64,000 nucleotides of DNA. It comes from Escherichia coli O157:H7. GTDB taxonomy: Bacteria > Pseudomonadota > Gammaproteobacteria > Enterobacterales > Enterobacteriaceae. The position numbers were made by a program, and so were the translations under genes. The notes beneath the pieces were generated by a model. The model saw nothing but the letters and a program-made list of their open reading frames with translations, made no database searches and was not told the origin of the DNA. The stretch lies in assembly GCF_013167455.1 (NCBI RefSeq), contig NZ_CP038328.1, one strand, 5' to 3'. Positions 62,846-63,451 of the stretch are shown here, in pieces; position 1 is the stretch's first letter, and each line of letters opens with the position of its first letter.

Positions 62846-63451
62846 CTACTTTTGTTCTTTCGTTAATTCTTCAATTAGTCGATCTGCATCAAGCGGCTGT
62901 TTACTCGCTTTGAGTTTATATGCCCATTGCAATGCTTCTTTTTTATTTCCCTGGTTTTTATAACAATTCACCAAGAACCATATTGCTGAACTGTCATTAT
63001 TACTGGCAGCCAATTTAATTTTTTGTAACCATTCATTAGCTTCCTTGGTTTCACCTTGTTCTTGTAACTCTACATATAACCGATACTGAGCTGTCGCATG
63101 ACCATTATTAGCCGCTATTTTTAACCACTGACTACTTTTTTCTTCATCATAATTGGACAACTTGTAGTACAAGAACAACCTAAAACCCGCCTCGCCATCG
63201 CCTCGTTTTGCCTGGTGTGATAAAGTATTTACTTCTTCTGGCTGCAAATAAAAGACGCTTACTGTTGATTTTGGTTCACCTTCACCTTCACCTTCACCTT
63301 CACCTTCACCTTCACCTTCACCTTTTCTAGCAGAAAGCTCCGCCAATAATTTTTCCGCCTCATCAGAATGTTTTGAGTTATCCATAGCAGCCCTCACTCC
63401 AAAGTTATAAAGACATACCATGATAATCAACAAAAAAGTAAATACTTTCAT
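62846..63451 (-). CDS. Sel1-like repeat protein with N-terminal signal peptide and (GE)8 linker; candidate immunity protein for the main Rhs toxin
   Basis: 201 aa; MKVFTFLLIIMVCLYNFGVRAA signal-like N-terminus; repeated ..AQYRLYV../..WLQKIK..AASNN.. helical repeat units; starts 3 bp after the rhs stop. Confidence 0.65.
   Translation of the reverse strand: MKVFTFLLIIMVCLYNFGVRAAMDNSKHSDEAEKLLAELSARKGEGEGEGEGEGEGEGEPKSTVSVFYLQPEEVNTLSHQAKRGDGEAGFRLFLYYKLSNYDEEKSSQWLKIAANNGHATAQYRLYVELQEQGETKEANEWLQKIKLAASNNDSSAIWFLVNCYKNQGNKKEALQWAYKLKASKQPLDADRLIEELTKEQK
63275..63322. repeat. Perfect hexanucleotide tandem repeat (TTCACC)x8 inside the immunity-candidate gene
   Basis: Eight uninterrupted ttcacc units, encoding GEGEGEGEGEGEGEGE on the minus strand. 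Confidence 0.95.

Follow-up and report, generated by a model that had tools for sequence, protein, structure and literature searches.

A hypervariable Gly-Glu spacer in the Sel1 repeat gene behind an Rhs toxin of Escherichia coli O157:H7 corresponds to the typing locus VNTR-3

The perfect hexanucleotide tract found near one end of the analyzed stretch of E. coli O157:H7 DNA (64 kb in all, hereafter the window) is the MLVA locus VNTR-3 of this organism, and the window carries its eight-unit allele. The tract lies inside a gene for a Sel1-like repeat protein, encoded immediately behind the C-terminal toxin domain of an Rhs protein. We consider it highly probable that its variation reflects replication slippage within a tolerated, in-frame spacer of a predicted immunity protein, with an instability that depends on the length of the tract. 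The repeat had been picked out in an initial annotation made from the sequence; that observation is correct, but the locus it describes is already known.

Read on the plus strand, the tract is a perfect (TTCACC)8 at 63275–63322, visible directly in the sequence, and Tandem Repeats Finder recovers it as 63275–63324, with a period of 6, 8.3 copies, 100% matches and TTCACC as the unit. The shorter interval is exactly the codon-phased tract; the two further periodic bases, to 63324, are contributed by the preceding AAA lysine codon. On the minus strand, which is the coding strand, the tract reads GGT GAA eight times from codon 44 onward and so specifies (Gly-Glu)8 at residues 44–59. For a tract with 42 consecutive lag-6 matches the chance expectation is about 4e-21, and a perfect-microsatellite scan found this to be the sole perfect microsatellite longer than 12 bp within the 64 kb window. 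Direct reading and Tandem Repeats Finder thus both bear out the eight uninterrupted hexamers that the initial annotation placed at 63275–63322; its further remark, that such a pattern is rare in enterobacterial coding DNA, holds in so far as the tract is the only microsatellite of its kind in the window.

The identity of the locus follows from the published typing primers. The PulseNet VNTR-3 forward primer site, GGCGGTAAGGACAACGGGGTGTTTGAATTG, is matched exactly on the minus strand at 63514–63543, in the 3' end of the toxin gene (0 matches expected by chance), and the reverse primer site, GAACAACCTAAAACCCGCCTCGCCATCG, is matched exactly on the plus strand at 63173–63200, inside the Sel1 gene. 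Both sequences are printed as VNTR-3 primers in earlier typing work (PMC8461963; PMC3321953). Each matches once, and the two converge from either side of the tract, giving a predicted amplicon (63173–63543) of 371 bp, to be compared with a published range of 333–477 bp (PMC8461963). That the primers might amplify some other locus in the window strain is excluded in silico. The primer pair, the 6-bp unit, the amplicon size, the location in an ORF of the Z0268/Z0269 T6SS/Rhs island and the polymorphism of the tract all agree with VNTR-3, and the (GGTGAA)8 tract on the minus strand at 63275–63322 is the variable core of this locus.

The same locus has been named several times, as PulseNet VNTR-3, as Vhec3 (Lindstedt 2003), as TR5 (Noller 2003) and as O157-3 (Keys 2005), and under none of these names does it differ from the locus in the window. 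One typing study equates VNTR-3 with Vhec3 and TR5 and lists a 6-bp unit inside an ORF, with 3–23 repeats (PMC3321953, Table 1); another equates O157-3 with Vhec3 and TR5 (PMC3768571). Among 202 German isolates the locus had 22 alleles, the most of any locus in that study, and a diversity index of 0.86, and the sorbitol-fermenting cluster carried allele 4 (PMC3321953). In serial passage, O157-3 mutated at 8.5e-5 mutations per generation, the events recorded being one gain and one loss, each of a single unit; taken across loci, rates in that study were low and changed little in alleles of up to about 13 units, and were higher in longer ones (PMC3777172). Most recently, a comparison with O55:H7 CB9615 showed Z0269 to carry six additional GGTGAA units, which place (Gly-Glu)6 between Glu49 and Pro50 (PMC12981562, published in 2026). 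The tag given to the host ORF is inconsistent in this literature, being Z0268 in the MLVA table of PMC3321953 and Z0269, the Sel1 immunity gene, in PMC7216683 and PMC12981562.

The host gene is present in 375 of 5,426 complete E. coli genomes, always on the chromosome and in one copy each, and it is intact in 374 of these carriers, the remaining copy being frameshifted. The matched gene span ranges from 576 to 690 bp in steps of 6. Nine alleles were read directly, and these have perfect tracts and identical flanks: 3 units in O55:H7 DEC5D and in RM9513; 4 in the sorbitol-fermenting O157 strain 493/89; 8 in the window, Z887 and RM19259; 9 in Sakai; 21 in Z1323HEC0494; and 22 in F3398. Across 98 different genomes, drawn as two evenly spaced samples of the hit lists and with most counts inferred from BLAST span lengths, every copy number from 3 to 22 units is represented, in 6-bp steps only and always in frame. 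Copy number is therefore far from invariant among isolates. The proposal that slippage would change the length of the encoded linker without shifting the frame is likewise borne out, by perfect tracts of 3, 4, 8, 9, 21 and 22 units that differ in 6-bp steps.

This variation is unevenly distributed. The 75 O157-like genomes, a class defined by proxy as a strain label of O157 or a genome larger than 5.3 Mb, include 20 alleles spanning 3 to 22 units, with a Nei diversity of 0.92. Three O55:H7 genomes have 3, 3 and 4 units. Among other E. coli, 18 of 20 have 3 units, with one genome at 4 and one at 5, although these non-O157 carriers possibly represent few clones, and common descent may account for part of their apparent constancy at 3 units. 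Only 2 units, in the context KGEGEPKST, are present in a diverged orthologous module of metagenomic origin, whose toxin is 74% identical to that in the window.

Repeats are prone to mis-assembly, and most of the counts above derive from assemblies; it is nonetheless hardly credible that the copy-number differences are sequencing or assembly errors. The differences are exact multiples of 6 bp, made up of perfect units. Related isolates are concordant, with 18 units in all four PNUSAE/2024CK genomes and 8 in both Z1766 and Z1768. The 4 units found here in 493/89 equal the allele assigned by PCR to the sorbitol-fermenting cluster (PMC3321953), and PCR fragment sizing, done across many laboratories over two decades, gives the same range, of 3–23 repeats. 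An assembly artefact is contradicted by this independent, PCR-based typing.

The frameshifted copy mentioned above belongs to RM19259 (NZ_CP046527.1), in which an 8-unit tract is accompanied by the loss of 1 bp in a six-T run outside the repeat, at the equivalent of window position 63136. RefSeq marks this copy as carrying a frameshift, which may be genuine and make the copy a pseudogene, or may be an error in sequencing the homopolymer.

Since the gene is linked to conflict between bacteria and its simple-sequence repeat is hypermutable, the tract invites comparison with contingency loci, in which repeat number switches a gene on and off. The general behavior of the Haemophilus and Neisseria contingency loci is indeed similar to that of VNTR-3: they are hypermutable by slipped-strand events, at a rate that depends on tract length. 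They differ in that their units are not multiples of three, or act as promoter spacers, and so switch genes, whereas VNTR-3 changes only the length of a peptide spacer. Its unit is 6 bp, no observed allele departs from the frame, the tract lies within the ORF rather than in a promoter spacer, and the lone frameshift stems from the single T missing outside the tract in RM19259. Phase variation of the gene by repeat number is for these reasons extremely unlikely, and classification as a phase-variable contingency gene is contradicted by the in-frame unit.

The reading we favor is slippage in a tolerant spacer. Whole units would be gained or lost by slipped-strand mispairing during replication, as expected from what is established for VNTRs in general. 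The unit comprises two codons, and therefore every allele is in frame and only the length of (Gly-Glu)n changes. This stretch, situated between a signal-like helix and the Sel1 domain, would tolerate changes in length and permit a roughly neutral accumulation of alleles, which would escape purging because the spacer accepts any length. Outside the O157 lineage the tract appears to be near-fixed at 2–3 units, and it would have become hypervariable (4 to >20 units) after an expansion on the O157 stem. The alleles can be arranged as a series that would run from 2 units (the diverged orthologue) through 3 (most E. coli and O55:H7) and 4 (sorbitol-fermenting O157 and one O55:H7) to 5–22 (O157:H7). 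Judged from this distribution, the series is consistent with a length threshold, instability rising above about 4 units. We assume that the length variation is functionally neutral, an assumption suggested by the continuous spread of allele sizes, which does not differ between orphan and full-length toxins. The T6SS of EHEC has been described as degenerate, with no antibacterial activity detected (PMC12981562), and this report lends the assumption further support.

The gene that hosts the tract occupies 62846–63451 on the minus strand and encodes 201 aa from its long start; its assignment as a Sel1-like repeat protein gene draws on the ORF, Pfam and PDB matches, a structural model and annotation. 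Its equivalents are Z0269 in EDL933 and ECs_0238 ("yibG") in Sakai, and RefSeq names it "sel1 repeat family protein." The 201-aa product matches Pfam TPR_19 with 27.2 bits (cutoff 25), and a PDB sequence search matches it to solved Sel1-repeat proteins at E of about 4e-5. In an AlphaFold model built with 31 homologues (mean pLDDT 89.9), residues 2–43 form a helix, residues 44–62 a coil with pLDDT of about 60–64, and residues 63–200 paired Sel1 helices with pLDDT of at least 95; Foldseek relates the model to Sel1/TPR structures with probability 1.0. Tandem helix-turn-helix repeats and profile matches together place the product among Sel1/TPR proteins. A word-index homologue search with the Sel1 protein recovered nothing beyond E. 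coli alleles, and an exhaustive search recovered just generic Sel1/TPR matches over residues ~45–190, from which no non-E. coli orthologue family could be defined. A scan for promoters and terminators around the gene gave a site count not above that of shuffled controls.

In the family alignment, short homologues mostly begin with a hydrophobic signal or lipoprotein peptide, followed by a spacer of variable length and composition and then by a conserved block, P-(V/I)-S-T ... (F/Y)YL-x-x-E-(I/V) ... GD-x-x-AAFRLY-x-YY. It is in this indel-rich spacer that the Gly-Glu tract lies, directly before EPKST, the local form of the conserved EP(K/I/V)ST motif. Because the tract occupies a variable, low-confidence spacer, "linker" is a fair description of it, and the (Gly-Glu)8 linker that had been proposed is indeed found, as GGT GAA codons encoding a low-confidence coil between the N-terminal helix and the Sel1 domain. 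On the model and the alignment, the tract-bearing region is predicted to be disordered and variable in length across the family. HcpC (of the Helicobacter cysteine-rich proteins) and other secreted Sel1-like proteins have the same Sel1 helical-repeat fold and an N-terminal export signal, of which the putative signal segment here is the counterpart. The protein described here differs from them in lacking paired cysteines, in being much shorter and in its linkage to an Rhs toxin, as well as in having the (Gly-Glu)n spacer.

Whether the first 22 residues belong to the protein depends on the start codon, and the choice between Met1 and Met23 is ambiguous. The first 22 codons, MKVFTFLLIIMVCLYNFGVRAA (63386–63451, minus strand), are hydrophobic, with hydropathy up to 3.1, and resemble a signal peptide. 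The RefSeq/PGAP model leaves this segment out, beginning at Met23 (63385) and giving 179 aa. In favor of Met1 and of export, signal peptides occur in homologues and in YibG of K-12; the diverged orthologue, moreover, retains the N-terminal segment though its codon 23 is GTG, the published numbering of Glu49 and Pro50 follows the long ORF (PMC12981562), and the first ATG is tightly coupled to the stop codon of the toxin gene. Met23 is favored by a good GAGG Shine-Dalgarno-like sequence, at -8.8 kcal/mol versus -4.3 for Met1. If Met23 is the real start, the protein has no signal peptide, and the tract stands near its N-terminus rather than between two structured parts. The annotated RefSeq start is probably too short, and correcting it would shift the predicted location from the cytoplasm to the periplasm, where the Sel1 protein probably resides.

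Two nucleotides separate the ATG of the Sel1 gene from the stop codon of the gene before it. This is an orphan Rhs fragment, the 3' end of an Rhs gene on the minus strand at 63454–64000, cut by the edge of the window. Its residues 1–30 match RHS_core / Rhs_assc_core; the end of the Rhs core (DPxGL) is followed by a C-terminal toxin domain of about 150 aa (63454–63915) with the motifs FTVGGHG ... LFSCETGKG. In strain Z887, which differs from the last 9 kb of the window at only 2 positions, RefSeq annotates the fragment as an incomplete RHS CDS, and the coding-strand order is VgrG, full-length Rhs, an ankyrin-repeat gene, the orphan Rhs fragment, the Sel1 gene and an ISAs1 element. RM9513, 493/89, Z1323HEC0494 and Sakai have this toxin domain at the end of the full-length Rhs that immediately follows VgrG, with the Sel1 gene next in order. 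The pairing of toxin domain and Sel1 gene recurs at 8 other loci inspected, some of them with a full-length Rhs beside VgrG, and also in the 74%-identical module and in a paralogue in K-12.

The toxin domain has no family match in Pfam, NCBIfam or PDB sequences. The FTVGGHG and LFSCETGKG motifs, with their His and Cys, are conserved among toxin homologues down to 41–44% identity. The AlphaFold model of the domain is poor (mean pLDDT 52.7) and its top Foldseek matches are weak (E 0.06–0.3, TM 0.3–0.38), although those matches are all InsP6-dependent cysteine protease domains (C80) of the TcdA, TcdB and MARTX toxins. The modeling thus gives a hint, and only a hint, of a C80-like cysteine protease domain. 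Previous in silico work reads the EDL933 pair as a PAAR-Rhs effector (Z0268) and its cognate immunity protein (Z0269), modeling the toxin tip on the cysteine protease domain of V. cholerae RtxA and the immunity protein on HcpC (PMC7216683; PMC12981562); an I-TASSER toxin model in the former study gave the same cysteine protease domain match, with TM 0.68 (PMC7216683). The Sel1 protein is accordingly predicted, from gene order and homology, to be the cognate immunity partner of a T6SS-associated Rhs C-terminal toxin. This makes plausible its initial labeling as a candidate immunity gene: it always lies directly after the same Rhs C-terminal domain, and Z0269 is a predicted immunity protein in both of the papers just cited. 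Separately, one T6SS paper reports z0268/z0269 to be absent from lineage II strains; this probably reflects an orphan layout such as that in the window, not a lack of the Sel1 gene.

The paralogue in K-12 is yibJ–yibG of the rhsA element, an orphan pair equivalent to the toxin–Sel1 module. The C-terminal domain of yibJ is 45% identical to the window toxin across the GGHG...FSC(E/N)TGKG motifs; a pseudogene, yibJ breaks off after the Cys motif. YibG, at 153 aa, is a Sel1/TPR protein that has a clear signal peptide and shares 31% identity with the Sel1 protein of the window; it differs in having no Gly-Glu tract (its spacer is ADVKIKQNESMMGST), and it is not a VNTR locus. The poorly characterised YibG is, by this homology, likely to be an Rhs immunity protein.

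A second orphan Rhs fragment lies on the minus strand at 59201–60961; it is 586 aa long, combines RHS repeats with a C-terminal DUF6973 domain (PF22322, E = 4e-9) and is bracketed by the ISAs1-family (H-repeat) transposase genes ISEc26 and ISEc1, at 57383–58555 and 60964–62100. Downstream of it, at 58736–59217, come small ydcD-like ORFs for which the Z887 annotation indicates frameshifts. A very hydrophobic ORF of 99 aa with several predicted membrane spans, at 62208–62507 on the minus strand, lies between the Sel1 gene and the ISAs1 element; it has no Pfam match and is unannotated in Z887 and Sakai. This ORF occupies a very AT-rich stretch (GC 0.29), beside a degenerate AAAAAAC repeat at 62349–62400, and may be a leftover orphan immunity gene. 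Elsewhere in the window, four copies of a 15-bp unit (CAGATTTTGACGGGT-like) occur at 28534–28597, inside a 313-aa ORF at 27965–28906 (minus strand) whose product has a repeated SDxSKSD stretch as its middle section. By its overall look, this ORF resembles a lambdoid replication-initiator gene with origin iterons. The window and Z887 are not colinear at ~28.5 kb.

Given this architecture, it is possible to ask whether the length of (Gly-Glu)n matters to the protein, altering immunity function through membrane reach, stability or affinity for the toxin, such that the variation is selected. The tract occupies precisely the junction of the N-terminal helix with the Sel1 domain, the gene is intact in nearly all carriers (374 of 375), and several strains, among them ones with 4, 9 and 21 units, have the pair joined to a full-length Rhs that follows VgrG. 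Against selection on length, however, all lengths from 3 to 22 occur and none is obviously preferred; orphan and full-length toxins are accompanied by the same spread; homologues have spacers very different in length and composition; and the T6SS in which the pair would act is reportedly degenerate in EHEC, as noted above. Other VNTRs of O157 that share no function with this one also behave alike. VNTR-17 (Z5935), VNTR-19 (Z3274) and VNTR-9 (Z3935/Z3936) are likewise in-ORF, frame-preserving repeats with 6-bp units, high diversity and rates of a similar order, and they differ from VNTR-3 in residing in other genes and having other repeat sequences. We therefore regard selection for altered immunity function as distinctly improbable.

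A further proposal places the effect of the repeat in translation: the (GGUGAA)n array is Shine-Dalgarno-like, and its copy number might set expression of the immunity gene through slowed elongation or out-of-frame starts. Pairing with the 16S 3' end is calculated at -7.9 kcal/mol for one unit and -9.1 for two, as compared with -17.3 for a consensus Shine-Dalgarno, and the +1 frame consists of GUG AAG repeats that end in NQNQQ-stop just past the tract. These considerations are purely computational, however; the pairing runs through UCACC, beside the core anti-Shine-Dalgarno, and is far weaker than that of a real site. Pausing at internal Shine-Dalgarno-like sites is itself disputed. Such a translational role is very improbable, more so than selection on the spacer as protein. 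Taken in its broadest form, the idea that the length of (Gly-Glu)n or (GGUGAA)n tunes the level or reach of a periplasmic Sel1 immunity protein, and that VNTR-3 is consequently not neutral, is unlikely. If such tuning were real, O157:H7 populations would hold standing variation in protection against a cysteine-protease-like Rhs toxin.

VNTR-3 has been in use for about twenty years as one of eight PulseNet MLVA markers for subtyping O157:H7 in outbreak work, since its rapid mutation lets closely related isolates be told apart. The present analysis ties this marker to its host gene, whose product, a Sel1 protein that probably has a signal peptide, is paired with an Rhs toxin; the pair is paralogous to yibJ–yibG. 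It also places the tract in the variable spacer of the family, and sets out a stepwise series of 2, 3, 4 and many units. These are refinements rather than discoveries.
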